Shown here: positions 12,413 to 41,282 of the stretch, one piece after another
How positions within the stretch are numbered: the first letter of the stretch is position 1
How the letters are laid out: every line of letters starts with the position of its first letter
Assembly: GCA_964643955.1 (NCBI GenBank)
Contig: CAZXUO010000003.1
Span: forward strand, 19,865-83,864
DNA: 64,000 nucleotides
From: an uncultured Candidatus Saccharibacteria bacterium
GTDB taxonomy: Bacteria > Patescibacteriota > Minisyncoccia > Phycocordibacterales > UBA918
Direction of reading: 5' to 3'
Translations under genes and position numbers: made by a program
The notes under the pieces: generated by a model
The model's input: only the letters and a program-made list of their open reading frames with translations
The model's database searches: none
What the model was told of the DNA's origin: nothing

Positions 12413-12439
12413 TTTAAGCACTGAACTATTTTGCGTTTC

Positions 12440-12595: not shown

Positions 12596-12606
12596 ACGAT
12601 GTAGTT

Positions 12607-13638: not shown

Positions 13639-13639
13639 G

Positions 13640-13757
13640 TCGCACCAGTCATGTGCGACCGAGAAGGTTCTAGACCGAAGAACACAGCAGCCATGTGAGA
13701 CCGACCGAGACGCTGATTATCGAGGATAGTAGTTCGCACCAGTCATGGGCACGAACT
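13640..13757 (+). repeat. Repeat copy C (diverged)
   Basis: Shares 'cagtcatgtg', 'ggttctagaccgaag', 'cagccatgtgagaccgaccgagacg' and 'cagtcatgggcacgaac' blocks with copies A and B. Confidence 0.5.
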
Positions 13758-13898
13758 TGTCCAGAATCAGCATTCGGAGTCTCCAGGTACTATTCCGAAA
13801 ATCGCATACCCGGTGAGTCCAGTATCCAGACAGAAAAACCACCTGCATGGGTGGTTTTTCTGTCCCGCTTGCGAATCCCTAACAGGGGGCGTCCTGTA

Positions 13899-21630: not shown

Positions 21631-23445
21631 ATGATTTTTTTCGGCATCTCAGTACTCGCAGGTATCTTCACCGTCGTTGCGCCTTGTATATTGCCGCTTC
21701 TCCCGGTGGTGATGGGCGCATCAGAGACGGGTGATCGGCATGTTGGGAAGCGGGCGCTCATCGTCATTGGTGCGCTCTCGCTCTCGGTCATCATCTTCAC
21801 GCTTTTACTCAAAGCAACAACCCTCCTCATTGGTATTCCGCAAGTATTCTGGAGTTGGTTTTCTGGTAGTATCATCATCGCCGTAGGGTTTGCGATCACG
21901 TTTCCTTCATGGTGGGCGCGCGTGCCATACATTAATAAAGTGAGTGTACTCAGCAATCAGGCGGTCGGTGCGGGATATCAGAAGAAAAGTTATACCGGTG
22001 ATGCGCTGATGGGACTTGCGCTCGGTCCAGTTTTTACCACGTGCTCACCGACATACCTCTTCATTATTGCGACCGCGCTCCCTGCGACGTTTGCAACCGG
22101 CCTTTTGTATCTCTTCGGCTTCACGTTTGGGCTTGCTCTCTCACTTCTTGTGATTGCGTATTTTGGACAAACGCTCATCAATGCGTTGAATGCGCGCATG
22201 GATACTGCCGGAAGGGCGAAGCAAGTATTCGGGATTCTCATCATCGTGGTCGGGGTTTTGATCGTGACTGGTTTTGATAAAAAGATAGAGGCGTACATCC
22301 TCGATTCCGGCTATGGCGCGACGATACAATTAGAAAATAAACTCATCGAGCAATTTGCTCCCACATCTATGTCGACAAAAGAAGCACGCACGAGTGGTGG
22401 TGCCTACGAAACGATCACGCTCGCAGGAGGTTGTTTCTGGTGTACCGAGGCGTACTTTCAAGAACAAGAGGGAGTCATTGATGCAGTGTCGGGATATGCA
22501 GGTGGAGACGAATCGACTGCGTCGTATCTCGTGGTTGCGCAAGGTACGACGAAGCATCGAGAGGCAGTACAGGTGACGTACGACCCAGAAATTATTTCTA
22601 CTGAAAAGATTCTCGATATTTATTGGTCACACATCGATCCGACAAATACGGTCGGACAGTTTGCTGATGAGGGTTTCCAGTACACAAGCGCAATCTTTTA
22701 TCACACCGATGAGCAGCATGCGGTTGCGCATGATTCCAAGAATCGACTTGAAGTGAGTGGTCTCTTTGATAAACCAATTGCAACTGAAATTCTTCCGTTC
22801 AGTACTTTCTTTAAGGCGGAGGAGTATCATCAGGACTATTATAAGAAGGCGTCCGATCATTATGAGCGGTACAAGGAAGCGTCGGGTCGCGCTGGATTTG
22901 TCGAGGAGACGTGGGCGAAAGATGCAGCTATTCAATTTTTAGAATCGGAAGAAACAAAAACTATGAACACAAACGAGTCGTCGAAGAGTGACAACAAGTA
23001 CGAGTATACCGATGAGGAAATTGCAGAAAAGTTAAAAAACCTTGATCCACTTGCGTATCATGTGGTTGCTGAAAATGGTACCGAGTCACCATTTAATAAC
23101 GCCTACTGGGATAATAAGGCGGACGGCATCTATGTGGACATCGTGACAGGTAAGCCGCTGTTTTCGAGCACGCATAAGTATGACTCGGGTACCGGCTGGC
23201 CAAGTTTCTGGAGGACTATCGATGATGATTCGGTGACGATGCATGAAGATAATTCGCTTTCAACGACCCGCACCGAAATACGAACTGAGGCAGGGCATGT
23301 CGGGCATGTGTTTGAGGATGGGCCCGCAGAAGAAGGGGGAAGGAGATTTTGTACCAACTCCGCATCACTTCGGTTTGTACCAAAAGCGGACATGGAAAGA
23401 GAAGGATATGGTCAGTACCTGTATCTCTTCACGGAATCAGTTTAG
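21631..23445 (+). CDS. msrAB: CcdA-MsrA-MsrB tri-domain fusion (membrane thiol-disulfide transporter fused to both methionine sulfoxide reductases)
   Basis: N-terminal ~230-aa CcdA/DsbD-type domain with Cys in TM helices ('VVAPCILPLLP', 'FTTCSPTYLF'). MsrA motif 'LAGGCFWCTE'. MsrB domain 'GTGWPSF…HVGHVFEDGP…RFCTNSASLRF'. Start ATG overlaps the upstream stop (TAAATGA). Confidence 0.85.
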   Translation: MIFFGISVLAGIFTVVAPCILPLLPVVMGASETGDRHVGKRALIVIGALSLSVIIFTLLLKATTLLIGIPQVFWSWFSGSIIIAVGFAITFPSWWARVPYINKVSVLSNQAVGAGYQKKSYTGDALMGLALGPVFTTCSPTYLFIIATALPATFATGLLYLFGFTFGLALSLLVIAYFGQTLINALNARMDTAGRAKQVFGILIIVVGVLIVTGFDKKIEAYILDSGYGATIQLENKLIEQFAPTSMSTKEARTSGGAYETITLAGGCFWCTEAYFQEQEGVIDAVSGYAGGDESTASYLVVAQGTTKHREAVQVTYDPEIISTEKILDIYWSHIDPTNTVGQFADEGFQYTSAIFYHTDEQHAVAHDSKNRLEVSGLFDKPIATEILPFSTFFKAEEYHQDYYKKASDHYERYKEASGRAGFVEETWAKDAAIQFLESEETKTMNTNESSKSDNKYEYTDEEIAEKLKNLDPLAYHVVAENGTESPFNNAYWDNKADGIYVDIVTGKPLFSSTHKYDSGTGWPSFWRTIDDDSVTMHEDNSLSTTRTEIRTEAGHVGHVFEDGPAEEGGRRFCTNSASLRFVPKADMEREGYGQYLYLFTESV

Positions 23446-23556
23446 ACCGATAATCAACCGGATAGGCCTCCGCTTGCAGAGATTTCAGTGGTTCACAATG
23501 GGCGGGTTTCAAGGGTACTTTTCATTGGTATAATTTTTCTAATGGGTCACGTATTG

Positions 23557-25455
23557 ATGCGGAGCGCATGGACAGCGGTTTTTGCTATTGCGCTCATGTT
23601 TCCTTCATACATTTTTGCAGCAGATGAGCCGATCATGCATCTGAAATTTGATGATGGTTCTGGTACGACACCGCAGGATAGTAGTGCAAACAATGTCGAT
23701 GGCTCTTTCACTGCGACGCAGCCGACATGGTCGACGACGGTTCCTGATGTGGCATTTGATAATCCCCGTTCGCTCGACTTCACGGGATCAAATGATGGTG
23801 TGAATGTGACGTGGCCTGAAGCACTCGACTTTGCCGCAACTGACCCACGTACATTTTCATTCTGGTATCGTCCGACAGCGAATGGAGAAGGAGCGTATTC
23901 ACGCCTCTTGAGCTGGACGAGTGACCAGTTGGAAATTGCCGGTACGGAGGCTGGTGGGTCAACGCACAAGATCACATACTACGATGGTGAGTGGCATGCG
24001 ACTGACATCACATTGTCGATTGGTACGTGGTATCACGTGACGTTTACGTATGATGGAACGACTGCAAAGTTTTATATTGGTGATGAACTCCAAGATGAGC
24101 ATGCACTCGCAGGGCGTGCACTGAGCGGAACTCTTAAAATAGGTAATCGTGTTCAGGATGGAAATGAAGGTATCAATGGTCAGATGGATGATATTCGCAT
24201 CTATGACTATGCACTCAATGCGACGCAAGTCGGGAATCTTGCGTCGGGATCAAATGATCCAGACTCAGCGCCGGATGAGACCGCACCAACGTTTTCGAGT
24301 ATTAGCGCAAGTGCATCCTCGAGTGGTGCGACCGTGACATGGACAACCAATGAAGCGGCTTCGACTAAAGTCGTCTACTCAGTCGATGGTACCTACGCAT
24401 CTTCGACAGCGCACACCGATACATCGACGCGCGTGACGAGTCATAGTACAAGCGTGAGTGGACTTCTCTCGTGTACGTTGTATTGGTATCGAGTCGTTTC
24501 AGCTGATGCGGCGGGGAATTATGCGACCTCCACCGCAAGTCAGACTACGTTTAGTACAACCGGCTGTACGGGAGGAGACTCACCACAGATCTCGTCTGCA
24601 ACTCTGGCCACCAATGCAGGTGCAACGACAACACGCACGACGAGTGGACGAAGTTTGGCTGTCCATACACCAGAAAATTTTACCGATGATGTGGATTCGG
24701 TTGTGTTGCAAGTCGCATCATTGACGTCAAGTAGTGCACTTGGCGTGATCGGAAAACCTAATAGCAGCCTCACGAGTGCTGCCGCGTATGTGTTTGATGT
24801 GAAAGCATTGATCAACAACACAACTGAACTCGATTCATTTGATCTTCCGGTCAGGCTCACACTTACGTATACCGACGCAGACATGAGCGGACTCGATGAA
24901 AGTTCACTTGCTATGTATCACTACTCAGATAGTGCATGGTCAGAGCTTGATGACTGTACGGCCAATACGACAGCGAATACCATCACCTGTGAGACAGACA
25001 GTTTTTCGATATTTGGAATTTTTGGGACAGGGACGAGTGGAAGTGGTAGTACATCTGGTAGTGGCGGCGGTATACGATATGGATGCAAGGATAAGTCTGC
25101 ATTGAATTACGAGTATTTTTCTTCACACCGACAAGATTTGTGCAGATATACTGAGGTTCAGACAGGTTTGTGTCCGCGATACCAATTCACACGTCGACTC
25201 CAGTTTGGAAGTGAAGGAGAGGATGTGCGGGCATTACAAAAATTCTTGAATTGTGCCGGATTTACGATTGCATACGAAGGGCTTGGTGCGCCCAGTAACG
25301 AGACTTTATATTTTGCAGACCGTACGCTCGCAGCAGTGAAGCTCTTTCAAACAGCGTATGCTACTGAGATACTTTTGCCAGGTGGCTTCTTGAGTCCAAC
25401 TGGAATTTTTGCAACATTTTCACAAGCTAAAGCATACAGTCTGATGCAGCCATAA
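23557..25455 (+). CDS. Secreted surface protein: LamG/concanavalin-like lectin domain, FN3-like domain, C-terminal PG_binding_1 domain
   Basis: Signal peptide 'MRSAWTAVFAIALMFPSYIFAADEP' chosen over the tool's upstream start. 'GQMDDIRIYDYALNATQV' is typical of LamG_3. The C-terminus 'GSEGEDVRALQKFLNCAGF…AVKLFQTAYATE' is peptidoglycan-binding-like. TGGTATAAT lies at 23524–23532. Confidence 0.6.
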   Translation: MRSAWTAVFAIALMFPSYIFAADEPIMHLKFDDGSGTTPQDSSANNVDGSFTATQPTWSTTVPDVAFDNPRSLDFTGSNDGVNVTWPEALDFAATDPRTFSFWYRPTANGEGAYSRLLSWTSDQLEIAGTEAGGSTHKITYYDGEWHATDITLSIGTWYHVTFTYDGTTAKFYIGDELQDEHALAGRALSGTLKIGNRVQDGNEGINGQMDDIRIYDYALNATQVGNLASGSNDPDSAPDETAPTFSSISASASSSGATVTWTTNEAASTKVVYSVDGTYASSTAHTDTSTRVTSHSTSVSGLLSCTLYWYRVVSADAAGNYATSTASQTTFSTTGCTGGDSPQISSATLATNAGATTTRTTSGRSLAVHTPENFTDDVDSVVLQVASLTSSSALGVIGKPNSSLTSAAAYVFDVKALINNTTELDSFDLPVRLTLTYTDADMSGLDESSLAMYHYSDSAWSELDDCTANTTANTITCETDSFSIFGIFGTGTSGSGSTSGSGGGIRYGCKDKSALNYEYFSSHRQDLCRYTEVQTGLCPRYQFTRRLQFGSEGEDVRALQKFLNCAGFTIAYEGLGAPSNETLYFADRTLAAVKLFQTAYATEILLPGGFLSPTGIFATFSQAKAYSLMQP

Positions 25456-29910: not shown

Positions 29911-30567
29911 TCAAGCAAGAACTCTCTTAAGCTTTTCAATATCGGGGATGTGGATGATTTTGTTTGAGACTTTGATGATTCTCTTTTTGATGAATATGCG
30001 CATGATAGTGTTGGTGCTTTCCCGTGTCATATGGAGGAAGTTTGCGATGGTGGTTTGTGTGAGTGGTATGTAGATGTGGCACCCATTCTTTACTTCAGTG
30101 CCGTAATGCTTTGCCATAAAGAGAAGCCATCGAGCAAATTTGCGCTCGATGCCATTTTCGCCTTGGTAGATGATGCGTTCGATAAGATAGATGCGACTTC
30201 GCAATACCATGTCGAGGTATTCTTGCGCGAACTCCGGATCACGCCCGAGGTGCATAAAAAAGTCAGACCGCTTGACCCGATAGAGCGACACTGCTGTCTC
30301 TGCGGTGTACTCGAGTTTGCCGCCTTCGTCGCCAAAAAAAGATCCGCTCTGCGCGAAGGTTGTACCGGGACGGAAGAATCCGATGATGCGAGTAGTACCG
30401 TCCGAGAGGGTAAATGAGGAGCGTACATACCCTGACACAAGGAAGTACACCCATGGATATTGTTCGGCAGGCCAGACGAGAAGCTGGTCTTTTTTGTACC
30501 ACAGGAGTTCTCCGTGTTTCTTGAAAAATGTCTCGTGTACGTGGGAGTACTTGTAGAGAAGCGGCAT
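29911..30567 (-). CDS. Crp/Fnr-family transcriptional regulator
   Basis: cNMP-binding beta-roll (N-terminal half) and C-terminal HTH 'LTQTTIANFLHMTRESTNTIMRIF'; 218 aa. Confidence 0.75.
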   Translation of the reverse strand: MPLLYKYSHVHETFFKKHGELLWYKKDQLLVWPAEQYPWVYFLVSGYVRSSFTLSDGTTRIIGFFRPGTTFAQSGSFFGDEGGKLEYTAETAVSLYRVKRSDFFMHLGRDPEFAQEYLDMVLRSRIYLIERIIYQGENGIERKFARWLLFMAKHYGTEVKNGCHIYIPLTQTTIANFLHMTRESTNTIMRIFIKKRIIKVSNKIIHIPDIEKLKRVLA

Positions 30568-30675: not shown

Positions 30676-32307
30676 ATGCGGGACGTATATGTGCCACTTT
30701 TTTTGCGTACCGGAATTTTTATTTTGGTTTTATTGGCCGCGCTTTCTTTGTGGATACCTTCGGTTTATGCAACGACTGTTTTGAGTAACATTGGTGAGAC
30801 GAATGATAAATCGACAACTTCTGTTCGAAGCAATGTGTGGAAGGCGTGGAAATTTACTGCAGGAGGTCCGGCGACAATAACAAGTGTCACTATGGCAGTC
30901 GATCTCGTCCAGTCTGTTACCGGACTTGATATTAAATTTTACAACGATAATAACGGCAATCTTGGCACGCAGATTGGTGGCTATCTTGACTACACCTCGA
31001 CAAATACTGATGCAAGTCAGGCAACATATGGAACACTTGTAGGAAACAGTATTGTCATTCCGAGTGCTGGCTCGTACTGGATTGGTCTGGTACCACCTTC
31101 GTCAGCAAATATTTATTTGAAATTGACATCTTCTACGAATGAGACCGGTATTGCGGGATGGGAGATGTTTTTAGGAAACAATGGTTTTGTTTCATTTTAT
31201 TCTGGACAGTTTTATAACAACACGGCAACAATTGGTACTCTTATGTTAACGATGTCAGGCGATACTACTGATGAGACTGCCCCGACGATCAGTACACTTT
31301 CGCCTGCGGATGGTGCGACGACAACTGCAACCACGGCGAACCTCGTTATGACGTTTAGTGAAGCAGTTGATGCGGAGACGGGTAATATCACCATCAAAAA
31401 GGGAAGCGACAACAGCACCATTGAGACAATTGCTGTGACGAGTGGTCAAGTGACGGGAAGTGGTACGGCAACAATTACCATAAATCCATCGAGTAATCTT
31501 TTAGAGAATACTGCGTACTATGTACAGGTAGACGCAACTGCATTTGATGATGCTGCGGGTAATAGCTATGCCGGTATCTCAAATACGACCTCATGGAATT
31601 TTACGACGGCAGATGCTTCAGGTGGTACGACACAAGGTTGGTCGCGACCACCATCGCCAAGAATTGAGGTTTCTTTAAAAGATGCTACGTCAGTGATAGT
31701 AGCTGGTTCGCTTACAGATAGTAGTGTGCGTGTAAATGAAATGGGCTTTGAATATTGGCGAACAAAGAAGAATCCTGAAAAGATAGTACTCTCGGGGACG
31801 CCGCGCTCATACCGATACACTGTTCGAGATCTTTTGTGTGGTACAACATATACTCTTCGTGGGTTTACCAAAAATATAACAGGTACTACCTATACTGATG
31901 AGGTGACATTTGAGACAGAAGATTGTGAGGCAGAGGAAGACAATTCTAAAGACGACGAAAGTATGTCAGAAGATGAAGATGTGACGGATACTGAGGATTC
32001 AGTTTTCATGACGCCGTCAGTCTCACTTCAGTCGTCGACGTATGAATCACTTGATGAGCGCGATCTCTTTTTAGAGGCTGAGGGTGAGGATGTGCGTGTG
32101 CTTCAGTTATTCTTAATAGAGCAAACCGTCGGTCCTGCCGCACGTGAGCTTGCACGTGTTGGTGCGACTGGATATTTTGGTACGTACACACAAAATGCGC
32201 TTGGTGAATTTCAAAAAGCTAATGGAATTGTGCCGCATGCGGGATATTTTGGTCCCATCACTCGCTTGTTTATAAAAAATATGAGCAGCCTCTCATTTGG
32301 TTCTTGA
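30676..32307 (+). CDS. Secreted surface protein: Ig-like (Big_5-type) domain, FN3-like domain, acidic linker, C-terminal PG_binding_1
   Basis: Signal/TM 'GIFILVLLAALSLWIPSVYA'. 'APTISTLSPADGATTTATTANLVMTFSEAVD…YYVQVDATAFDDAAGN' is Ig-like. The C-terminus 'GEDVRVLQLFL…NALGEFQKANGI' is peptidoglycan-binding-like. Confidence 0.6.
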   Translation: MRDVYVPLFLRTGIFILVLLAALSLWIPSVYATTVLSNIGETNDKSTTSVRSNVWKAWKFTAGGPATITSVTMAVDLVQSVTGLDIKFYNDNNGNLGTQIGGYLDYTSTNTDASQATYGTLVGNSIVIPSAGSYWIGLVPPSSANIYLKLTSSTNETGIAGWEMFLGNNGFVSFYSGQFYNNTATIGTLMLTMSGDTTDETAPTISTLSPADGATTTATTANLVMTFSEAVDAETGNITIKKGSDNSTIETIAVTSGQVTGSGTATITINPSSNLLENTAYYVQVDATAFDDAAGNSYAGISNTTSWNFTTADASGGTTQGWSRPPSPRIEVSLKDATSVIVAGSLTDSSVRVNEMGFEYWRTKKNPEKIVLSGTPRSYRYTVRDLLCGTTYTLRGFTKNITGTTYTDEVTFETEDCEAEEDNSKDDESMSEDEDVTDTEDSVFMTPSVSLQSSTYESLDERDLFLEAEGEDVRVLQLFLIEQTVGPAARELARVGATGYFGTYTQNALGEFQKANGIVPHAGYFGPITRLFIKNMSSLSFGS

Positions 32308-32363
32308 TTATTATGTGGAGTGCTGAGCTGACGTCGTGTAGTGGGAGGTGAGATACTAGAGAA

Positions 32364-32918
32364 GTGAGAAAGAAGAGTCGTCAGAAAAAATGGGCGTATC
32401 AGAATACGATACTTTTGTTATTGTCGCTTACGGCACTTTTTATACTTGCTGATTCCGCACCTGTACAGAAACTCCTTCATGATGTCTCTTCGTACGGATA
32501 TCTCGGCACGTTTATAGCGGGTATATTTTTCGTTTCGACGTTTACGATTGCGCCCGCGTCGCTTGTTCTACTGCATCTTGCTGACAGTCAGCCACTTGCG
32601 ATACTCGCGCTTGTCGCAGGATTGGGCGGTATGATCGGAGATTTACTCATTTTCCGCTTCTTCAAGGATCAGATTTTTTCGGAGCTTGCGCCGCTTTTCT
32701 CACGGATCACTGGGAAGGGCGTGTGGTGTCTGGCATGCAGTCCGTATTTCAGCTGGCTCATGCCGGTCTTCGGAGCGCTCATTATCGTCTCACCATTTCC
32801 TGACGAGATTGGTGTCGGCTTGATGGGGGTGAGCAAGATAAAGACCTGGCAGTTTATGGCGCTCACGTTTGTCCTCAATGTCTTTGGAGTGCTCCTCATT
32901 ATCTTTCTATTTCGATAG
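32364..32918 (+). CDS. Integral membrane protein (GTG start)
   Basis: Four to five TM helices; GGAGGTGA lies ~15 nt upstream. No motif recognised. Confidence 0.4.
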   Translation: MRKKSRQKKWAYQNTILLLLSLTALFILADSAPVQKLLHDVSSYGYLGTFIAGIFFVSTFTIAPASLVLLHLADSQPLAILALVAGLGGMIGDLLIFRFFKDQIFSELAPLFSRITGKGVWCLACSPYFSWLMPVFGALIIVSPFPDEIGVGLMGVSKIKTWQFMALTFVLNVFGVLLIIFLFR

Positions 32919-33000
32919 TCAACAAAGTCGAGAAAAAACGCTATAATCAAGAGTAATTCACTTGATTGTGTGATTATTTTAACTGTAATTTAGTCTGCTC

Positions 33001-33438
33001 ATGGAGGATTATTTTTTAGTGAATGAAGCGAAGGTGGTGAGTCAGACTCTTGAGGGAGAGGCGATCGTGATCAATCTCGAAAAAGGAAACTACTACAGTT
33101 TCAACGTGACTGGCTCAGAAATATGGGACCTCATGGTTGCTGGGCATGCGCTGCATGCCATCGAGCAATATATCTCTGATCGGTACAATGTCTCACTTGA
33201 GCAGGCAGAGGAGGATGTGCGCGCGTTTGTGACGTCTTTGGAACAGGAGGATCTCGTCACACGTACAGAGAAAGGTGAGACAGCGCATTCTGCGCCGACA
33301 GTGACAAAAGCAACAGAACAATTCGTACGCCCTTCGTTTGAACGATACGACGATATGCAAGAAATGCTGCTCGCCGATCCAATCCACGATGTGGGCGAGG
33401 CTGGGTGGCCTGTTCTCAAAAAAGAAGAAGCGGTATGA
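33001..33438 (+). CDS. PqqD-family RiPP-recognition-element (peptide chaperone) protein with a ~55-aa C-terminal extension
   Basis: 'VSQTLEGEAIVINLEKGNYYSFNVTGSEIWDLMVAGHALHAIEQYISDRYNVSLEQAEEDVRAFVTSLEQEDLV' fits the PqqD/RRE profile. The stop overlaps the next start (ATGA). Confidence 0.7.
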   Translation: MEDYFLVNEAKVVSQTLEGEAIVINLEKGNYYSFNVTGSEIWDLMVAGHALHAIEQYISDRYNVSLEQAEEDVRAFVTSLEQEDLVTRTEKGETAHSAPTVTKATEQFVRPSFERYDDMQEMLLADPIHDVGEAGWPVLKKEEAV

Positions 33439-34094
33439 GTGATCTACCACGCATCTCTGTAGTCACTCCGGTATTTAACGGAGTCAGGTACATTGAAGCA
33501 ACCGTCCACTCAGTGCTCGAACAGGGGTATCCCAACCTCGAGTACATTCTCGTTGATGATGGTTCAACTGATGCGACTCGTGAAGTCCTTGCACAATTTG
33601 GCGACGCTGTGCGTGTGATTGTTCAGAAAAATACAGGACATGTCATTGCTCGAAACGTAGGGCTGCGCGCTGCAACAGGAAGCATAATCTCGTTTATTGA
33701 TCAGGATGATGTGTGGCCGCATGGTCGGCTCGAGAAAATGCTCCCGTTCATAATGAGTGGGGAATACGATTATGTTCGAGGGAAGACACTTTTGTTTGGA
33801 GATTATATTGAAAAAGATCTACCGATTCATCGTTATCCGATCATTGGCGCGTGTCTGTATCGAAGTGAGATATTTCAAAGTATCGGTCTTTTTGATGAAG
33901 GGATGGATGCGGGAGAGGATTTCGACTGGAATGTTCGTCTGGGAGAATCAACATTTCGCGAAAAACGGATTGACGATGTGACGCTCTTGTACCGCCAGCA
34001 TGATACAAATCTGTCTCACACGGATGGTTTTCTTGCGCGCGGACAGTTTGATACGCTCCGGAAAAAATTGAAGCGCGCACGTACACACATATAA
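33435..34094 (+). CDS. Family 2 glycosyltransferase
   Basis: 'ISVVTPVFNGVRYIEATVHSVLEQGYPNLEYILVDDGSTD' and a 'DQDD' DxD motif. Confidence 0.8.
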   Translation: MSDLPRISVVTPVFNGVRYIEATVHSVLEQGYPNLEYILVDDGSTDATREVLAQFGDAVRVIVQKNTGHVIARNVGLRAATGSIISFIDQDDVWPHGRLEKMLPFIMSGEYDYVRGKTLLFGDYIEKDLPIHRYPIIGACLYRSEIFQSIGLFDEGMDAGEDFDWNVRLGESTFREKRIDDVTLLYRQHDTNLSHTDGFLARGQFDTLRKKLKRARTHI

Positions 34095-34107
34095 CTATCC
34101 AGCAGCC

Positions 34108-35178
34108 ATGAACTCGCAATTACCAACTAGAAACTTTCTCGGAATTTCTGCATCATATTTTGAAAAAGAATTTTTGCCAACATTCACGAGAGTGTCTGCA
34201 CGCACGTCGCCGCAGGAGGTCCAGTACGAGATTGCAGGAGTGAAGATATCTTTGCGATTTTTTTGCGAGCAACTTGCAGAGCGGCTCATGCCGGCATTCG
34301 CTCATTTGCCGAAATTCTCGGGGGCGCCGGACATTGTTGTTAATCTTGTAGACGGATCGATCATGCCGCTTATGCCTCCGTGGTCGCGCGCAGATTTTTT
34401 ACAAAGTGGTGCAGATGTTTCTCTAAACCGTTCTTCATTTCGCGGAGTGTACATAAGTGGGGAGGAATCTTTGAACTTCTATGATGCTGAATCCAGAGTT
34501 GCGTATTTTTGGACAAATGACGTTGGTGCACTGCCGGGTTGGGTTGTTGGCGCGCCGCTTCGAGCAATTTTGCATTGGGTGTTATCTTCTCGAGATATAC
34601 AACTAGTCCACGCGGCTGCAGTCGGACGTGGTGATGAGACGGTGCTTTTAACGGCGAAGAGTGGGTCGGGAAAATCAACAACAGCTCTCTCGTGCGTACT
34701 CTCAGGCATGACTTACTTGGGGGATGATTATGTCGGAGTCACTGCGGGTGCGAATGATTTGGTGGCACATAGCTTGTATGATTCAGCGAAGATGACTCCG
34801 AACACGCAAAAGATGTTTCCTGAGTATGCAGAAGGTGTTGTCACGGTCCCGTCAGTAGATGATCGGAAATCAGTCGTGTACCTCTCTCAGATTTTTCCTG
34901 AACGAGTACGAACGGTATCCAGTGTGCGCGCTATTTTAATACCGAGTATTGATTCTGCCGCGGAAGCGTCGTTTCTCATTCCCGCACGAAAGCATGAAGC
35001 ACTTCGTGCGCTTGCTCCGACCGTGCTTTTTCAGCTGCCCGGGGCAGGCACTATGCTCCTCGGTCGACTCGCTGAAATCGTTTCGTGCGTGCCGTCGTAC
35101 CATCTGCGACTCGGCTCTGATGTGCGCGCAATCCCGAGCGTGATCGATACTGTTTTTTCTTACCATCGCTCGATATGA
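34108..35178 (+). CDS. HPr-kinase-related P-loop kinase (HprK C-terminal-domain-like; 'HprK-related kinase A'-type)
   Basis: 'VLLTAKSGSGKSTTALSCVLSGMTYLGDDYV' parallels the HprK/P P-loop plus 'ADD' segment. The N-terminal ~200 aa are unrelated to HprK. The stop overlaps the ABC start. Confidence 0.6.
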   Translation: MNSQLPTRNFLGISASYFEKEFLPTFTRVSARTSPQEVQYEIAGVKISLRFFCEQLAERLMPAFAHLPKFSGAPDIVVNLVDGSIMPLMPPWSRADFLQSGADVSLNRSSFRGVYISGEESLNFYDAESRVAYFWTNDVGALPGWVVGAPLRAILHWVLSSRDIQLVHAAAVGRGDETVLLTAKSGSGKSTTALSCVLSGMTYLGDDYVGVTAGANDLVAHSLYDSAKMTPNTQKMFPEYAEGVVTVPSVDDRKSVVYLSQIFPERVRTVSSVRAILIPSIDSAAEASFLIPARKHEALRALAPTVLFQLPGAGTMLLGRLAEIVSCVPSYHLRLGSDVRAIPSVIDTVFSYHRSI

Positions 35179-36842
35179 GTGCAACGTTTCAAAACTTGAG
35201 AGGATTTTATACACAATATTTTGCAAAGCATACGCGGCGCTTTGGTGTGAGTCTCATGCTCGCTATTGTTCAAGCGTTACTACTCGTACCTATTCCGTTT
35301 TTAGTACATGCGCTGTTTAAAACACTTTCGACGCACGGAGAAGTACGTTCACTCTTCCTCATCCTCGGGTCCATTATTTGTTTGATTATAGGTGCAGCTA
35401 CTGCTGCGATAATGAATCGCCGCATAACACTTTCTCTCATTAAAGAATCTGTTGGGGATTTGCGCGCTCATCTTGTAGAGCAGACGCTTGCACGCTCTCG
35501 CGCTGAGTACGCAACACTTGAAGTTGATGCGATTCACTCCGACATCGTGTACGGTACCGAGCGGATTGATTGCATGATGAGTGCGCTTTTCACACAGGTG
35601 GTACCTGGCATTCTGGTTGGTCTCGGAATCGGTATCGTCCTCCTCTACCTCAGTCCGCTCCTCACGCTCGTTGTCGTGCTCTCACTCCCAATTCTGTATG
35701 TGTGCGCACGGGCGTTCGGGAGACGGGTGCAGATACTTGTGAAGAAATTTCATGGTGACTTCTCAACTTTTAGTGAAAAGATTTCTTTCGTTACTCATTT
35801 TCATGAGCTTATAAAAATATCAGGGTCAGAGAGATTTGAATTGTCGCAGCAGCGACGATCGATACAAGATCTACGTTTTTCAAGTAGCGCGATGGCATTC
35901 TTTTCGACGATCCATACGATCATGCAGGGGAACGTGATGGTGCTCGTCGGTGTGATTGTGCTACTCGTGGGTGGTATACAGATTATCTCTGGCACGATGA
36001 CGCTCGGTGTAGTCCTCTCATTTTATATTGCACTAAGTGTGCTGATATCGCATATGCGCGTCGCGGTTGGAGCGCTCCCGACAGTCTTGGAGGGCTGGGA
36101 ATCTCTTCACGCACTCAGTGTGCATCTCGGATGGACGCCGACACTCTCGTCGGGTGGTCGTAACATCGATTCGATTACCCGTATCGATATGGAAGATGTT
36201 TCGTTTGGTTATGGGGATGAGCGTATGCTGCAGGGCGTCAGTCTGACGCTCACGCACGGTGAAATGATCGGGCTGTACGGCCCTTCGGGCTCAGGCAAAT
36301 CAACACTTGCGAGCCTGCTTTCGGGTCTTTATCAACCGCAGTCAGGCAGGGTGAGTTTCAATGGAGTTGATCTTCAGGATATTAATCCCGAGAGCTATCG
36401 GTCACGTATTGGAATGCTCACACAAGGATTATTGATCTTCTCGGGTTCAATCCGAGACAATCTTACCTACGGCATTGCGGATGTTTCTGATGATCTCTTG
36501 CGAGAAGTTTGTACGATGTGTGGGATACAAGAATATATTGATGCGCTGCCGGAGGGATATGATACACCGGTCGGTGCGAACGGCACGCAGCTTTCGGGTG
36601 GACAGCGGCAGCGTGTAGCACTTGCTCGTGCGCTCGTTCGGCAGCCCGATATACTGATACTTGATGAGCCCGATAATAATCTCGATCAGATGATGATCGA
36701 GAGCATACTTACTCACATCCACCAAAAGAAGATCACTACACTCGTGATCACACACAATCGATCATTGGCGCATCATTTTGATCGGGTTTACGAATGTACA
36801 AAAGTAGGCGGCGTGACTTTAGTGCGTGAGCAGAAAATATAA
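35175..36842 (+). CDS. ABC exporter, fused TMD-NBD (MsbA/lasso-peptide-D-like)
   Basis: Six-TM N-terminal domain, Walker A 'GPSGSGKST', signature 'LSGGQRQRVALARAL', Walker B 'ILILDEP'. Confidence 0.85.
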   Translation: MSATFQNLRGFYTQYFAKHTRRFGVSLMLAIVQALLLVPIPFLVHALFKTLSTHGEVRSLFLILGSIICLIIGAATAAIMNRRITLSLIKESVGDLRAHLVEQTLARSRAEYATLEVDAIHSDIVYGTERIDCMMSALFTQVVPGILVGLGIGIVLLYLSPLLTLVVVLSLPILYVCARAFGRRVQILVKKFHGDFSTFSEKISFVTHFHELIKISGSERFELSQQRRSIQDLRFSSSAMAFFSTIHTIMQGNVMVLVGVIVLLVGGIQIISGTMTLGVVLSFYIALSVLISHMRVAVGALPTVLEGWESLHALSVHLGWTPTLSSGGRNIDSITRIDMEDVSFGYGDERMLQGVSLTLTHGEMIGLYGPSGSGKSTLASLLSGLYQPQSGRVSFNGVDLQDINPESYRSRIGMLTQGLLIFSGSIRDNLTYGIADVSDDLLREVCTMCGIQEYIDALPEGYDTPVGANGTQLSGGQRQRVALARALVRQPDILILDEPDNNLDQMMIESILTHIHQKKITTLVITHNRSLAHHFDRVYECTKVGGVTLVREQKI

Positions 36843-36844
36843 AT

Positions 36845-37531
36845 ATGGATACGACTGGTCTCGTGAGTGTCATTGTGCCTGCATATAACGCTGAGCGTTA
36901 TATAGGTGAGGCGCTTGAAAGTGTCTTTGCTCAGTCATACCAATATATGGAGGTAATCTGTGTGAATGACGGATCGACTGACAAGACGGGCGAGATCATT
37001 CGTTCGTACGGTGATCGAGTCGTATTTATCGATCAAGAAAAAAATAGTGGCATAGCGACGACTCGGAATGTTGCGCTACGACACGCTCGCGGCGCGTGGA
37101 TTGCTCTCATGGATGCAGATGATGTATGGGAGCCAGAGAAATTGCAGCTACAACACGCCTATGCAGATGGTCATCCGGACGTCGGTATTATTTTTACACA
37201 CGCGCAATGCTTCATCAGTCCTGATCTTCCGCCTGAAGTTCGAAGACTTCGACATTGTCCAGTTGAACCTTTGCCGGGGTTGCTTGCTGCATCTGCTTTT
37301 ATAAAAAAAGAACTTTTTGATACGGTCGGTTTTTTTGATGAGCGTTGGAGAGTAGGGGAATTTATCGATTGGTTTTCGCGAGCCCAGAGTATGGGAATTG
37401 AACATAAAGTGCTTGATGAAGTACTCTTGCGTCGTCGTATACATGATACGAACACGGGCGTCGAGAAGCGTCCTGAACGCGTCGACTATGTTGGTATTGT
37501 GCGTGAAGCTTTGAAGCGTCGGAGGGTATAG
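36845..37531 (+). CDS. Family 2 glycosyltransferase (second copy)
   Basis: 'VSVIVPAYNAERYIGEALESVFAQSYQYMEVICVNDGSTD' and 'DADD'. Confidence 0.8.
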   Translation: MDTTGLVSVIVPAYNAERYIGEALESVFAQSYQYMEVICVNDGSTDKTGEIIRSYGDRVVFIDQEKNSGIATTRNVALRHARGAWIALMDADDVWEPEKLQLQHAYADGHPDVGIIFTHAQCFISPDLPPEVRRLRHCPVEPLPGLLAASAFIKKELFDTVGFFDERWRVGEFIDWFSRAQSMGIEHKVLDEVLLRRRIHDTNTGVEKRPERVDYVGIVREALKRRRV

Positions 37532-37535
37532 AAGT

Positions 37536-38741
37536 ATGTCGCATACCATGTTATTTCCACTAAGTTTCCCAAACACTGAGGAGGAATCATTTCTCAGACT
37601 ATTACTTGCTGATCGCGAGCATTTTCGCGAGCTTTGGGAAGCATGGAAGACAACAGTTGTTTTTGATGATATTGATTTTGCAACGCTTCGACTGCTTCCA
37701 CTCTTGTACATGCGGCTGCGTGAAGCGGGGATTACGGACGACAAATATGTCGGGAAAATACGCGGCGTATATCGCATGGTGTGGGCGCGTAATCAGTGTC
37801 TCATCAACGAGGTGGCTGCGGTCGCTGATACATGTAGGGAGCGCGGCATTGACGTGCTACTTCTCAAAGGGCTCGCATTGCTTATTGATATGTATCGAGA
37901 TCCAGCAGCGCGGTTTTTGGGAGATGGAGATATTTTAATAAAAAAAGAGGATGTGCCGAGAGTTTTTGAAATCTTAGAAGAACTCGGGTGGACATGCGTC
38001 GATCCGTCGGTGTCACTAAAACATAACGCGCGCTACGAGGGGCTATTTGAGGTTACGCACGCAGTCGCGTTTAGAAATAAAACGGGTGTAGAGATCGAGG
38101 TACATTGGCATGTTTTTCATGTTGAGCTCGAGCGAGATCTTTTACGCTTGCTATTACTTTTGAGTCCGCACAATCGTGCAAATACAACCCTGTCGTGGCA
38201 GCGCGCTCGCGCGATCAAGCTCAAGGAAGTGCCAGTAAAAATGCTCTCGTATGAAGATATGCTCGTACATGTAATCGTGCACGGTGCTGAGGGTAATGAT
38301 AATCATCGGACATTGCGATGGGTCGTTGATGCTGCCTATATCATAAATACAACTTCGCTCGATTGGGATCGTGTACTTGAGATCACTCGTGATGGGGCGC
38401 ATATCGTCGCGATGCGTTACGGGATCACGTATCTCAAAGATAAGATGCATACAGATATTCCCTCTGTGTTTGTCTCAAAGCTTATGCAGCTTACATATTC
38501 ATCCCGTGAACATAGAAATTATCTACGTCGCACGCGTGTATGGTTTCCGCCACTTGGTAATTTTCCGTCACTCTGGTATCGATATTGGAAATATGAATCT
38601 TATGGCTCGTATCTGGAGCGCCTACGCCACTTCTCTTCATATCTGAAGCAAGTGTGGTCTGTTTCTCCTGCAGAGAGCCTGCTCACTTTCATTTATCGTA
38701 AGTATTGCGGCCGGATGATGCGAAAGTTCGGTAGAAAATGA
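37536..38741 (+). CDS. Nucleotidyltransferase-family protein (NTP_transf_5 / 'uncharacterised nucleotidyltransferase' type)
   Basis: 'IDVLLLKGLALL…FLGDGDILIKKEDVPRVFEILEELGWTC' matches the family's GDxD…GW core. 401 aa, 4 nt after the previous gene. Confidence 0.55.
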   Translation: MSHTMLFPLSFPNTEEESFLRLLLADREHFRELWEAWKTTVVFDDIDFATLRLLPLLYMRLREAGITDDKYVGKIRGVYRMVWARNQCLINEVAAVADTCRERGIDVLLLKGLALLIDMYRDPAARFLGDGDILIKKEDVPRVFEILEELGWTCVDPSVSLKHNARYEGLFEVTHAVAFRNKTGVEIEVHWHVFHVELERDLLRLLLLLSPHNRANTTLSWQRARAIKLKEVPVKMLSYEDMLVHVIVHGAEGNDNHRTLRWVVDAAYIINTTSLDWDRVLEITRDGAHIVAMRYGITYLKDKMHTDIPSVFVSKLMQLTYSSREHRNYLRRTRVWFPPLGNFPSLWYRYWKYESYGSYLERLRHFSSYLKQVWSVSPAESLLTFIYRKYCGRMMRKFGRK

Positions 38742-38805
38742 TGCTGCATTTGATTTGGTATAATGCGGTGTGCATTTACTACAGTAACGAATTTATCTCA
38801 TATAT

Positions 38806-39513
38806 ATGACAAAAACACTTATCATTGGCTTGGTAGTAGTTGCAGTGATTGCTCTCGGTGGATTCTTTTTGTGGACTCCCGCAGGAGCGCCTGAGACGAC
38901 TGATGAAGCGCGTCAAGAAGCGCAATCTGAAGCAATTACTGAAGAATCAAAAGTAGTAACTTCAGGAACGTACGTGGTCGTTCCTGAAGAAAGTGATGTG
39001 CGATGGGCAGGAAAGAAACCGCTTATCGATGGGTATGTAAATTCAGGCTCACTCGCACTCGAGAGCGGTTCAATCGTGGTGACTGAAACGACAGCAACTG
39101 GTGACTTTGTGATTGATATGAACACACTTTCTGTCTCACAGACGCCTACGAAACCAGGAAAAGAATCATCGCTTGAAGGACATTTGAAGGGTGAGAATTG
39201 GTTTAATGTCGCTGCGTTTCCTACCGCAACCTTCGATATTGTTGAAGTTTCTCCGCGCGCAGATAGCGGAACTGCATTTGTCTACAACGTCCGCGGCAAT
39301 CTCACGATGAAAGGGGAGACACATGAACTCTCATTTCCCGCACTGATTTACCTTGATGCAAATGGCGTGCTCCATGCAGATGCAACGCTTGAGTTTGATC
39401 GTACACTCTGGGGTATCACCGCAGGTTCAGGCTCGTTTTTCGACAATCTCGCAGATAACGCGATTGACGACATGGTTTCGCTCTCATTCAATCTTGTTGC
39501 TGAGAAGCAATAG
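38806..39513 (+). CDS. Membrane-anchored YceI-like domain protein
   Basis: N-terminal TM, then a YceI-like beta-barrel ('SDVRWAGKKPLIDGYVNSG…FNVAAFPTATFDIVEV…NVRGNLTMKGETHELSF'). TGGTATAAT lies at 38757–38765. Confidence 0.65.
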   Translation: MTKTLIIGLVVVAVIALGGFFLWTPAGAPETTDEARQEAQSEAITEESKVVTSGTYVVVPEESDVRWAGKKPLIDGYVNSGSLALESGSIVVTETTATGDFVIDMNTLSVSQTPTKPGKESSLEGHLKGENWFNVAAFPTATFDIVEVSPRADSGTAFVYNVRGNLTMKGETHELSFPALIYLDANGVLHADATLEFDRTLWGITAGSGSFFDNLADNAIDDMVSLSFNLVAEKQ

Positions 39514-39518
39514 TAGAC

Positions 39519-41282
39519 ATGCACGCGCGTCTCTCACAAGGTGCCGCGTTCTGGATGCCGGCAGTAGTGGCCGTCTTACTCATACTCAGCTTTTTTGATG
39601 CGCCGTTCGTACTGTTATGCGCAATCGGACTCGGACTCATTCGAATTCTTTTTGAGTCGTATCGGGAAATCCGTGAGGGGAGATATGCGCTCGACTATAT
39701 CGCGCTGGTTGCGCTCGGCGTCTCAATCATTGCTGGAGAGTATCTTGCAGGTGCGCTTGTCGCGTTGATGTTTACGGGAGGAAAAGCGTTGGAGGATTTT
39801 GCATCACGTAAAGCGTATGCTGCACTGAAGTCGCTTAGCGAGACGATTCCTAAAACGGTCTTTGTTGAGCGTGGAGGAAAATTTGAGGAAGTGCCGTTGC
39901 AAGAAGTACGTGATGGTGAACATATACTCGTAAAGCAAGGGGAGCTCGTGCCGCTCGATGGTATTGTGCGTGCTCCTGCGCAGGGACTGTTTGATCTTGC
40001 AAATCTCACCGGTGAAGCAGGCGCGCAGTATTTTGCTGCCGGAACATTTGTAAAAAGCGGTGCGATAAACAGAGGCGAGACCGTTACACTACAGGTTGTT
40101 GGCACCTTTGCTTCATCGACGTATCACAAGATTGCCGAACTCGTAGCTCAAGCAAAGTCGCATCCTGCGCGCATGGTGCTGCTCTCTGCACGTGCGAATA
40201 TCTACTTCACGGTGATTACCTTTGTTATTGCCGGGATTGCATTTGTACTTGGTGATGGTGTGACGCGCGCACTTGCGGTGCTCGTCATTGCGACGCCGTG
40301 TCCACTCATCATCGCGGCACCAGTTGCGTTTATTGGCGGTATGTCGCGACTTGCACGTTCGGGCATCATTGTGAGAGTGCCGGCGGCGCTTGAGGGAATC
40401 GCGCAGTCCGACACGGTCTTCTTCGACAAGACCGGTACGCTCACACTCGGAGAGCCGGCTCTCACAAGAATAGAGATTTGTCAGACCACAATGTCAGAAG
40501 AAGAACTTTTGCGCATCGCGGCCGGTATTGAGATTCACTCACTCCACCCACTTGCACGAGCGATAGTAGCTGAAGCTGAGCGTCGTCAGATTACCTACCA
40601 GATCGCGGATGTTGCTGCGGAAAAGATTGGAAAGGGAATCTCGGGCAAAATCGGAGGAAAGACATACATCATCTCTGGAACTGACGAGGAATATCGAGGC
40701 ATTACGCTCGCACTTAAATCGAACGATACAATCCTCGCGCGTTTTCATTTTGCTGACGTGCTTAAGGATGGCGCTTTAGATTTTATTGGAGAGCTCAAGA
40801 AAAGCGGGGTGCGCACCGAGATCATTACAGGAGATACAAAAGAGAATGCGAACGAGATTTTCGGCAAGACGGCTCTCCTCGTCCACGCTGCAGCATCGCC
40901 TCAAGATAAACATCACTTTGTTGAGGAAGCGCATGCGCGCGGCGCTGTCGTAACAATGATCGGTGATGGACTCAATGATGCGCCTGCGCTCGCTCGAGCA
41001 GACGTCGGTGTTGTGTATTCGGGTACTGAGAATAGCGCCTCGATCGAGGCGGCTGACATCGCGATACTCGATCGGCGTATCGATCGAGTGCGAGAACTTT
41101 TTTCGGTCTCGCACCGGACTGTGTCTATTGCGCGACAAAGTATCTACGGGGGAATTGTGCTCTCAACGATCGGCATGATAGCTGCGGCGCTCGGATATAT
41201 TCCACCCGTTTACGGCGCCCTTCTTCAGGAGACTATTGATATTATTGTGATTCTCAATGCACTGCGTGTGCTGCGTGCCTAA
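39519..41282 (+). CDS. P-type ATPase, P1B-like (TPCP membrane motif), lacking an N-terminal metal-binding domain
   Basis: 'DKTGTLT' phosphorylation motif, 'GDGLNDAPALARADVG' hinge, 'ATPCPLIIAAP' in TM6. 587 aa, short for the family. Confidence 0.75.
   Translation: MHARLSQGAAFWMPAVVAVLLILSFFDAPFVLLCAIGLGLIRILFESYREIREGRYALDYIALVALGVSIIAGEYLAGALVALMFTGGKALEDFASRKAYAALKSLSETIPKTVFVERGGKFEEVPLQEVRDGEHILVKQGELVPLDGIVRAPAQGLFDLANLTGEAGAQYFAAGTFVKSGAINRGETVTLQVVGTFASSTYHKIAELVAQAKSHPARMVLLSARANIYFTVITFVIAGIAFVLGDGVTRALAVLVIATPCPLIIAAPVAFIGGMSRLARSGIIVRVPAALEGIAQSDTVFFDKTGTLTLGEPALTRIEICQTTMSEEELLRIAAGIEIHSLHPLARAIVAEAERRQITYQIADVAAEKIGKGISGKIGGKTYIISGTDEEYRGITLALKSNDTILARFHFADVLKDGALDFIGELKKSGVRTEIITGDTKENANEIFGKTALLVHAAASPQDKHHFVEEAHARGAVVTMIGDGLNDAPALARADVGVVYSGTENSASIEAADIAILDRRIDRVRELFSVSHRTVSIARQSIYGGIVLSTIGMIAAALGYIPPVYGALLQETIDIIVILNALRVLRA

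Follow-up and report, generated by a model that had tools for sequence, protein, structure and literature searches.

A six-gene operon with a tailed RiPP recognition element

We studied a six-gene operon in a 64,000-nucleotide stretch of DNA from an uncultured bacterium of the Patescibacteria (we refer to the whole stretch as the window). The operon lies on the + strand at 33001-38741. A preliminary description of the sequence had proposed that the six genes form one tightly coupled unit, and this holds up: we recovered the same six open reading frames (ORFs), with unchanged boundaries, and the junctions between them are -4, +13, -4, +2, and +4 nucleotides. The two overlaps are ATGA sequences, at 33435-33438 and 35175-35178. 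As described below, the operon belongs to a large and uncharacterized cassette that is found across phyla.

The first gene (33001-33438, 145 amino acids) encodes a PqqD-like protein, which is a recognition element (RRE) of the type that serves peptides made by ribosomes and modified after translation (RiPPs). It overlaps the gene for the first of two family 2 glycosyltransferases (GT2 a, 33435-34094, 219 amino acids), which has an ATG start and an alternative, open GTG start at 33405. Next come a P-loop kinase-like protein from the HprK/PEPCK superfamily (34108-35178, 356 amino acids) and, overlapping it, an ATP-binding cassette (ABC) half-transporter of the MsbA/TAP type (35175-36842, 555 amino acids; ABC_membrane and ABC_tran in Pfam). 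The last two genes encode the second glycosyltransferase (GT2 b, 36845-37531, 228 amino acids) and a nucleotidyltransferase-fold protein of the NTP_transf_5 family (37536-38741, 401 amino acids; PF14907, 4.5e-45). These domain identities agree with those proposed earlier. Pfam identifies the PqqD domain, both GT2s, the ABC protein, and NTP_transf_5, and the kinase is identified by aligning the profile of its family to solved structures of HprK/P (E = 1e-6).

The RRE is most similar to the B1 chaperones of lasso peptides

The RRE itself is a winged-helix domain that occupies residues 1-89 of the 145 (33001-33267) and matches PF05402 (PqqD) at 2.7e-15 over residues 20-86. The AlphaFold2 model of the whole protein has a mean predicted local distance difference test (pLDDT) score of 83.8, with values above 90 over most of the RRE domain, and it has the topology of the lasso B1 proteins (beta1-4, alpha1-3, beta5). 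The nearest structures found by Foldseek are of TbiB1 (5v1u and 5v1v; TM 0.9, 27-30% identity). When we compared a profile of the RRE family to these proteins, TbiB1 scored 56 bits, PbaB1 (9x90, paeninodin-type) scored 49 bits, and LppB (9x8z) scored 30 bits. The model for lasso PqqD proteins (NF033536, lasso_PqqD_Bac) gives 58 bits for the window's RRE, which is below its 80-bit cut-off, and it matches 54 of 58 relatives of this RRE. Also, the residues of the beta4 groove (G29, Y31, Y32, and N35) show little or no variation across the family. The RRE is closest to the lasso B1 chaperones.

The C-terminal tail is the best-conserved part of the RRE protein

The 55-residue tail that follows the RRE had been singled out in the preliminary description as unusual. 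We found that the last 40 residues are the best-conserved segment of the protein, both among 58 database homologs and across 79 loci. The tail begins with a variable linker that is rich in Ser, Thr, Pro, Ala, and Glu (residues 90-107, 33268-33321) and whose length and sequence vary across the family. Then there is a leader-like motif, F108-V-R-P111-S-F113-E-R-Y116 (33322-33348; family consensus [F/Y]xxPx[L/I/V/F]x[K/R][Y/F]), followed by a near-invariant core, D117-D118-M-Q-E-M-L-L-A-D126-P-I-H129-D-V-G-E-A-G135-W-P137 (33349-33411). The protein ends with a variable basic segment, VLKKEEAV, and the stop codon that overlaps the ATG of GT2 a (33412-33438).

The consensus of the tail is [F/Y]xxPx[L/I/V/F]…D-M-Q-E-L-L-L-x-D-P-I-H-[D/E]-V-x2-3-G-W-P. 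If the Asp of DPIH is taken as position 0, then the leader motif has Phe or Tyr at -18 (73/78 loci), Pro at -15 (77/79), and a hydrophobic residue (Leu, Ile, Val, or Phe) at -13 (76/79). It continues with Lys or Arg at -11 and Tyr or Phe at -10, and after Thr/Ser or Asp/Glu at -9, there is an invariant Asp at -8. The Asp at -8 is followed by M-Q-[E/D]-L-L-L-[L/A], by the invariant D-P-I/V-H-[D/E]-V, by two to three variable residues, and by G-W-P. Across the 79 loci, the Asp at -8, the Asp at 0, and the His at +3 do not vary, and D126, P127, I128, H129, D130, G135, W136, and P137 are invariant in the 58 homologs.

We also searched with the 45-residue tail alone against 1.84 billion cluster representatives and obtained 1072 representatives (at 50% identity) with E ≤ 1e-3. 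Almost all of the matches listed are proteins of 140-160 amino acids with the motif at the C-terminus. The tail had no match among solved structures. We considered whether the tail might be conserved as a by-product of the overlapping downstream gene, and we rejected this explanation because the downstream neighbor is a GT2 or a kinase, depending on the lineage, while the motif is unchanged.

The leader-like motif has the same form as the published leader motif that binds B1 RREs, [Y/W]xxPx[L/V/I/F/A]. In crystal structures of lasso and LPP RREs (LPPs are discussed below), this leader motif occupies the groove, and the residues after it extend the beta-sheet along beta4 (PMC13381572). In the AlphaFold2 model of the window's protein, the mean pLDDT is 69 for residues 91-100, rises to 92 for residues 101-110 (where the linker ends and the motif begins), and is 85 for residues 111-120. 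There is a strand at residues 113-116, directly after P-x-F. Judging from the secondary structure, the pLDDT, and the register of the motif, the FxxPxF strand probably docks in the RRE's own groove, in cis. The B1-type RRE of lasso clusters, which binds a YxxPxL leader, has a counterpart here that carries a leader-like FxxPxF in the same chain. Beyond the strand, residues 121-145 have a pLDDT of about 50, and the core is predicted to be flexible on its own.

The cassette is found in more than ten phyla

A scan with a single sequence had found no relatives of the kinase. In contrast, a scan with a profile, using one genome for each GTDB species, identified kinase relatives in at least 319 species-representative genomes. 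The closest are from Patescibacteria (38-46% identity). The other carriers are from Gamma-, Alpha-, and Deltaproteobacteria, Acidobacteriota, Cyanobacteria (Nostoc and Halomicronema), Chloroflexota, Planctomycetota, Chlamydiota (Parachlamydiaceae), Bacteroidota, Actinomycetota, Nitrospiraceae, and Heliomicrobium, and the named genera also include Terriglobus, Bosea, and Halioglobus.

To count the neighboring genes, we used 82 non-redundant loci that contain a kinase relative; many of these are on contigs that are cut. A GT2 was present in 78 of the 82 loci (1-5 copies), the tailed PqqD protein in 76, and NTP_transf_5 in 61. All four components (RRE, kinase, GT2, and NTP_transf_5) were found together in 57/82 loci, from more than ten phyla. 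In 79/89 loci, the tail and the kinase gene are neighbors. Given this co-occurrence, the gene arrangement is far more than chance. The preliminary description had viewed the GT2s as an expansion of a trio of kinase, PqqD-family protein, and nucleotidyltransferase, but the GT2s belong to the core, and only the ABC gene (27/82 loci) is facultative.

It had also been suggested that the six-gene order be sought in relatives, and the exact order of the window (PqqD-GT2-kinase-ABC-GT2-NTP_transf_5) recurs in four loci (L009, L018, L019, and L022). These include both Gammaproteobacteria and Paceibacterota, which suggests that the cassette moves horizontally. To look for additional components, we performed all-against-all clustering of every ORF of at least 40 amino acids around the kinases, and no further family was conserved in more than 9 loci. 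We defined the cassette as an RRE with the C-terminal motif [F/Y]xxPxh…DMQxLLLxDPIH[D/E]V…GWP that adjoins a kinase of 350 amino acids, at least one GT2, and NTP_transf_5. The operon in the window has all of these features.

The enzymes appear to be intact

The kinase-like protein has the motifs expected for catalysis: H168, a P-loop (G186-S-G-K-S-T191), and D206-D207. When the profile of its family was compared to solved structures of HprK/P, this catalytic core (His, P-loop, and DD) was aligned, but the alignment spans only about 55 residues around the P-loop. The kinase scores 20.5 bits against PF07475 (Hpr_kinase_C), below the cut-off of 33.3, and against full-length HprK/P (TIGR00679/PF07475) it reaches just 20 bits where the cut-off is 240. 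So it is not an ordinary HprK/P, which was the check proposed in the preliminary description. We detected 312 full-length homologs of the kinase. Many of its relatives (including P0009 and P0010) carry the precomputed Pfam family PF27840.

For a structural comparison, we used the kinase part (residues ~430-785) of a natural fusion protein that is described below. Its best structural neighbor, according to Foldseek, is phosphoenolpyruvate carboxykinase (PEPCK), and ATP-dependent PEP carboxykinases, aligned as whole proteins over about 400 columns, rank above HprK/P. This ranking suggests that the two-domain architecture is more like that of PEPCK than that of HprK/P. The catalytic domain of HprK/P itself resembles PEPCK, and this would be consistent with the sequence match to HprK/P.

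The two GT2s match PF00535 at 2e-33 (GT2 a) and 3.8e-36 (GT2 b) and are 35% identical to each other. They are short, soluble, single-domain proteins. Their motifs are DDGS (41-44) and DQDD (89-92) in GT2 a and NDGS (41-44) and DADD (90-93) in GT2 b. They also match, at 6.6e-20 and over the N-terminal half, the model for MftF, which is the GT2 that oligoglycosylates mycofactocin. The ABC protein is similar to MsbA, PglK, and HepA; it has a Walker A motif (369-377), LSGGQ (473-477), and a Walker B motif (493-498), and no peptidase domain. NTP_transf_5 has the motif G-D130-G-D132. Thus, the catalytic motifs are intact in both GT2s (DxD), in the ABC ATPase, and in NTP_transf_5. D130 and D132 are at a similar position as D134 and D136 of PsmN, which are catalytic; the D134A/D136A mutant of PsmN is inactive (PMC6993621).

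Comparison to known systems

The enzymes of the cassette have experimentally studied relatives. The preliminary description considered the combination of kinase, RRE, and nucleotidyltransferase to have no experimental function, which is out of date. In the pathway for the lasso peptide pseudomycoidin, the HprK-like kinase PsmK phosphorylates the C-terminal Ser, and PsmN, which is a PF14907-type enzyme, is required for the addition of one to two hexoses to the phosphate (PMC6993621). LPPs were defined in Bacillota by Popov et al. (Nat Commun 2026). LPP clusters encode a SpI-like (SipW-type) leader peptidase (LppS), a discrete RRE, the HprK-like kinase LppK, LppN (an NTP transferase), and an exporter that resembles MsbA. 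The LPP precursors are separate proteins of 35-200 amino acids with variable cores and the motif YxxPxVLxHQxIxFETxxS. LppK polyphosphorylates Ser3 of the core (PsmK also polyphosphorylates a Ser). In the heterologous host, LppN showed no activity, and the activity of NTP_transf_5 was not reconstituted for LPPs (PMC13381572).

The operon shares with LPP clusters an RRE, a kinase similar to HprK, an NTP transferase, an MsbA-like exporter (LppK and LppN were compared by description), and a leader motif of the [Y/W]xxPx[L/V] type. The differences are that, unlike LPP clusters, it has no SpI-like peptidase (in the operon, its flanks, or the 44 accessory genes that we examined within or beside related cassettes); that the peptide is fused to the RRE and has an invariant core without Ser, whereas LPP precursors are separate and have a phospho-Ser3; that GT2s are core genes; and that the family is found in more than ten phyla, while LPPs are restricted to Bacillota. 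By counting along the published LppA motif, the invariant D126 lies 18 residues past F108, which is the distance of phospho-Ser3 past Tyr-16 in LppA. So, by spacing, the invariant Asp would fall where Ser3 would be.

The operon resembles the pathways for phosphorylated lasso peptides (paeninodin, with PadeK, and pseudomycoidin, with PsmK and PsmN) in having a B1-type RRE, an HprK-family kinase, a PF14907-type enzyme, and an ABC exporter, but it lacks the Asn-synthetase-like cyclase, the B2 protease, a separate precursor, and the C-terminal Ser. The operon looks like an undescribed cousin of these pathways. The absence of a cyclase and of a B2 protease, which had been reported before, extends to the surroundings. 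Using Pfam, we scanned 30 ORFs located at 3.9-51.7 kb of the window, including 24 that lie beyond the operon (distant small ORFs were not all included), and none of them encodes a lasso cyclase, a B2 protease, a signal-peptidase-like protein, or a radical-SAM enzyme. Similarly, no peptidase (including B2 transglutaminase-like peptidases), cyclase (including C-protein cyclases), or radical-SAM enzyme was found among the 44 accessory genes. A scan of the intergenic regions that flank the operon for small ORFs of at least 20 amino acids, as had been suggested, identified nothing that resembles a precursor.

The preliminary description had likened the operon to the computationally defined HPr-rel-A system, which also pairs a kinase from the HprK superfamily with a PqqD-family protein. 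According to the model scores, the cassette is a separate family. The window's kinase scores 30.8 bits against TIGR04352 (the HPr-rel-A kinase), for which the cut-off is 200 bits, and the best of 43 relatives has E = 1.4e-14. TIGR04353 (the HPr-rel-A PqqD protein) does not match the window's RRE protein and matches just 1 of 58 relatives (E = 8.7e-4). Nor does the cassette belong to GeoRSP: the scores are 33 bits for TIGR04355 (cut-off, 200 bits) and 23 bits for TIGR04302 (cut-off, 100 bits), and there was no radical-SAM gene in any locus that we examined.

Could the operon nevertheless be a member of one of these systems (HPr-rel-A, lasso, or LPP), with its precursor and peptidase encoded elsewhere? 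The weak matches to TIGR04352 and TIGR04355, the similarity of the RRE to lasso B1 models, and the presence of the enzyme trio and the exporter, as in LPP clusters, are in keeping with this idea. However, all of the NCBIfam scores are far under the cut-offs and TIGR04353 is essentially unmatched, a cyclase, B2 protease, or SpI-like peptidase is found neither in the scanned ORFs nor among the genes embedded in related loci, and the motif of the tail differs from YxxPxVLxHQxIxFETxxS and has no Ser. We would be very surprised if this explanation were correct.

The combination of a strongly conserved, precursor-like peptide with an RRE is reminiscent of mycofactocin and PQQ, and implies one conserved product instead of a variable antibiotic. 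The similarity is of logic only, as the cassette has no radical-SAM enzyme, peptidase, or oxidase. Borosins (OphMA-type) offer a precedent for a RiPP substrate that is built into a biosynthetic protein instead of being a free peptide: their core is fused to its modifying enzyme, the catalytic methyltransferase. In the cassette, in contrast, the fusion partner is the recognition element, with the kinase or a GT2 joined on in occasional cases only.

We found no description of a tailed-RRE cassette in the searchable full text of the literature. A 2025 survey mentions RREs fused to GT2 enzymes in passing, and in a metagenome study with antiSMASH, PqqD-like genes associated with RREs were among the core biosynthetic genes that were detected most often. 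In summary of this comparison, the enzyme toolkit is known, as it consists of the tailoring enzymes of phosphorylated lasso peptides and LPPs. The architecture, in contrast, is undescribed in the searchable literature: an RRE is fused to an invariant precursor-like peptide, GT2s are obligatory partners, a cyclase and a peptidase are absent, and the distribution covers more than ten phyla.

A proposed pathway with a self-presenting precursor

Our leading, and tentative, reading is that the tailed protein joins a precursor peptide to the RRE that recognizes it, and that the peptide is decorated with phosphate and sugars and exported; we put this at a little short of an even chance. The RRE would hold its own leader motif in its groove, in cis, after a flexible linker. 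The core of about 20 residues (D118…D126-P-I-H-D-V…G-W-P137) would thereby be held where a RiPP core normally meets its enzymes. The core is flexible in the models, and its place in the protein is that of a RiPP core; it may behave like a presented one.

In the first step, the kinase would phosphorylate the presented segment. NTP_transf_5 would then put the first sugar or nucleotide-derived group on the phosphate, comparable to the need for PsmN in pseudomycoidin, and the two GT2s would extend this group. Finally, the ABC protein, or a Wzx-like domain in other loci, would export or flip the product. This product would be a phosphate-linked glycan, which in some lineages might be sulfated or methylated. 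Both the role of the tail as the substrate and the order of the reactions are our inferences. The reading as a whole is supported by the synteny, by the absence of any other conserved gene family from the loci, by the conservation of the tail beyond the RRE, by the retention of a B1-like groove, by the match of the leader motif, by the stand-alone tails and the fusions that are described below, and by the precedents of PsmK, PsmN, and LppK.

We also considered a bolder proposal, which we view as doubtful: that the cassette is a pan-bacterial RiPP-like pathway whose self-presenting, fused precursor is converted, at its core, into a single conserved phospho-glycosylated product, via phosphorylation of Asp or His or another new linkage. 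The product would be cofactor-like or associated with the envelope, and important enough to stay in the minimal genomes of Patescibacteria. The invariance of the core points to one conserved product, with a cofactor-like logic as for PQQ or mycofactocin, and not to a variable antibiotic.

If the tail is the substrate, then this would be the first RiPP-type system that we know of whose precursor is fused to its RRE. It would also raise a chemical question, namely how an HprK-like kinase and NTP_transf_5 act on a tail without a conserved Ser or Thr. The cassette is common and very widespread, and it is kept even in the reduced genomes of Patescibacteria. Because it is small (5-6 genes), it can be tested directly by heterologous expression.

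Stand-alone tails and natural fusions

A few tails are encoded as stand-alone peptides of 51-63 amino acids. In each, a short N-terminus leads into the FxxPxL-type motif and then the invariant core, and the space upstream is too small for an RRE. The first case (L089:773-943) lies 62 bp from the start of a divergent acetyltransferase gene, and the stop codon of the peptide is overlapped by the next gene. The second case was found in two samples (L091:995-1150 and L092:762-917) and has a divergent permease gene 5 bp away. L093:185-376 is a third independent case. A 42-amino-acid ORF with the motif in L081 also looked like a separate gene, but we rejected it because it is a frameshifted fusion.

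In other loci, the RRE and tail are fused to the enzymes. In Acidobacteria, 24 proteins (P0184-P0207; for instance, L052:8666-11023 and L073:8672-11023) are fusions of 785 amino acids that combine the RRE-tail with two further RREs and the kinase. Each of the three PqqD domains is followed by a leader-like segment, while the DPIH…GWP core is present in the first tail only. In the AlphaFold2 model of P0184, ordered strands follow YLAPEV, FRPPDL, and the corresponding segment of the third repeat, and each strand is then followed by disorder. P0279 is a fusion of the RRE-tail to a GT2. There are also fusions of the kinase to a GT2 (confirmed by Pfam for P0052 and L056, and inferred from ORF length or sequence for L069, L075, and L087).

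The main alternative, which we consider rather unlikely, is that the tailed RRE is an adaptor or activator instead of a precursor. In this alternative, the RRE protein would be a scaffold that is locked by its own leader, and the tail would assemble or activate the kinase, GT2, and NTP_transf_5 on a substrate that is encoded elsewhere, such as an unlinked peptide, a protein of the cell surface, or a glycan attached to a lipid or polymer. It has been reported that RREs can potentiate their partner enzymes (PMC12710340). The tail is invariant, as a docking motif would be, and has no conserved hydroxyl; the fusions of the RRE-tail to the kinase and to a GT2 imply that it stays with the enzymes; and the window retains its kinase even though it has Asp at position -9. 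However, a mere tether should decay once it is fused, and the core is intact both in the 24 kinase fusions and in the GT2 fusion (P0279), which suggests that the core is more than a tether to the enzymes. Also, the stand-alone tails look like precursors, and we found no conserved candidate for an external substrate near the loci.

Evidence against the tail as the substrate

Several observations weigh against our proposal that the tail is a precursor. First, there is no conserved Ser or Thr in the tail across the 79 loci, and 5 of the 79 tails contain neither residue from the leader motif onward. A hydroxyl is frequent at just one position, -9 (D117 in the window, 33349-33351), which is Thr or Ser in 51/79 loci and Asp or Glu in 15/79, including the window, where it is Asp and the kinase is intact. 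So, the phosphorylation of Ser that is known for HprK-like RiPP kinases has no obvious acceptor here. Second, stand-alone tails are rare (three independent cases among about 170 loci), and all of them are on short contigs, which leave the remainder of the cluster out of view. A metagenome scan that was seeded with a stand-alone tail yielded 80 loci and no further clear case: of 87 motif-bearing ORFs from these loci and those retrieved immediately earlier, 73 belong to fusions with an RRE, and the others are cut by contig ends, except for one probable frameshift and the stand-alone cases already known. Third, in the fusions the core is internal, which is a poor fit with the release and export of a small peptide. 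In the model of P0184, the domains are confident but the invariant core is disordered and is not docked on the kinase; its pLDDT is about 41-52 across this model and that of the window's protein. The docking of the leader motif in cis is itself read from secondary structure and pLDDT only. Finally, no protease is conserved in the loci, and the ABC exporter is present in only a third of them.

The alternation of Thr/Ser with Asp/Glu at position -9 is typical of a phosphosite that swaps with a phosphomimetic residue. We rejected position -9 as an essential phospho-acceptor, as the lineages with Asp or Glu there (15/79 loci, including the window) keep intact kinases. If we return to the tail as the substrate, then the lack of a conserved Ser or Thr implies that either the chemistry does not involve Ser, with the invariant Asp, His, and Trp residues as candidates, or else the tail is not the substrate.

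Accessory genes and a possible role in the cell envelope

Among the 44 accessory genes that are embedded in or flank the related cassettes, the recognizable families were sulfotransferases (11), GT1 or GT4 glycosyltransferases (9), methyltransferases (3), Polysacc_synt (2), and ABC-2 (2). Sulfotransferase genes are found inside about a quarter of the cassettes that have extra genes (for instance, L006:11736-12584, L037:11679-12524, L070:11628-12464, and L059:13874-14773). A similar association, of sulfotransferases with kinases as well as nucleotidyltransferases, exists in some lasso clusters. L007 encodes a fusion of NTP_transf_5 to Polysacc_synt, a Wzx-like flippase (11811-14210, confirmed by Pfam), and its cassette lies within a polysaccharide locus that contains Bac_transf, Wzy_C, and an epimerase. 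The NTP_transf_5 ORFs in L007, L023, and L029 are all about 750-870 amino acids long, but the flippase fusion is established for L007 alone.

These genes suggest another explanation, in which the cassette mainly builds and exports a glycan (capsule-, teichoic-, or lipopolysaccharide-like) that is decorated with phosphate, sulfate, or methyl groups. The RRE protein would then act in regulation or priming, and a lipid-linked intermediate would be flipped by the ABC or Wzx-type protein. The presence of one to five GT2s per locus, the accessory genes, the L007 fusion, and the similarity of the window's ABC protein to MsbA, PglK, and HepA all fit with this. Furthermore, LPP and paeninodin clusters sit in capsule loci, and LPP clusters are often ringed by glycosyltransferases (PMC13381572). 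On the other hand, the universal partner in the cassette is a peptide-binding RRE with a leader-type motif, there is no conserved priming phosphoglycosyltransferase or polymerase, and the GT2s are short, soluble, and single-domain. Also, none of the ORFs that we scanned around the window's operon are polysaccharide genes. Overall, we consider a glycan-building module to be distinctly improbable.

Surroundings of the operon

There is a promoter-like sequence (TCAACA-17-TATAAT, similar to sigma-70 sites) on the + strand at 32919-32947, which is 54 nucleotides upstream of the first gene. It agrees with the consensus at 10 of 12 positions and is the sole promoter-like site on the + strand in 32200-39600. 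We view it as a hint, since the scan gave no excess over shuffled sequence. PADLOC found no match to defense systems beyond generic models for ABC ATPases.

The products of the 24 scanned ORFs outside the operon include proteins for housekeeping and redox functions and secreted proteins, along with YceI, a Crp-like regulator, a two-component system, and a P-type ATPase. The large ORFs in the window are mostly on the + strand, and between 18 and 42 kb, all of the large ORFs that are supported by domains are on the + strand except for the Crp-like regulator (29911-30567). The cumulative GC skew climbs almost monotonically across the window (positions 1-64000), from 0.12 to 2.77. Together, these suggest a single replichore with a strong leading-strand bias of genes.

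Large secreted or surface proteins are encoded at 3942-5375, 23488-25455, and 30676-32307. They contain PG_binding_1 domains, which are terminal or internal, along with Laminin_G_3 or Big_5. The last of these is just upstream of the operon, and between them is a gene for a membrane protein of 184 amino acids (32364-32918) with no family match.

The cassette proteins of the window are closest to those of Patescibacteria. The window also encodes a protein with a cytochrome d1 (NirS-type) heme domain and an N-terminal cytochrome b5-like domain (10328-12412), as well as a multicopper oxidase (18392-19612). If the affiliation holds, these are unexpected redox genes for Patescibacteria. Another ORF, of 604 amino acids (21631-23445), combines a DsbD-like transmembrane domain with MsrA and MsrB, and it is preceded by a thioredoxin-like gene (21130-21630).

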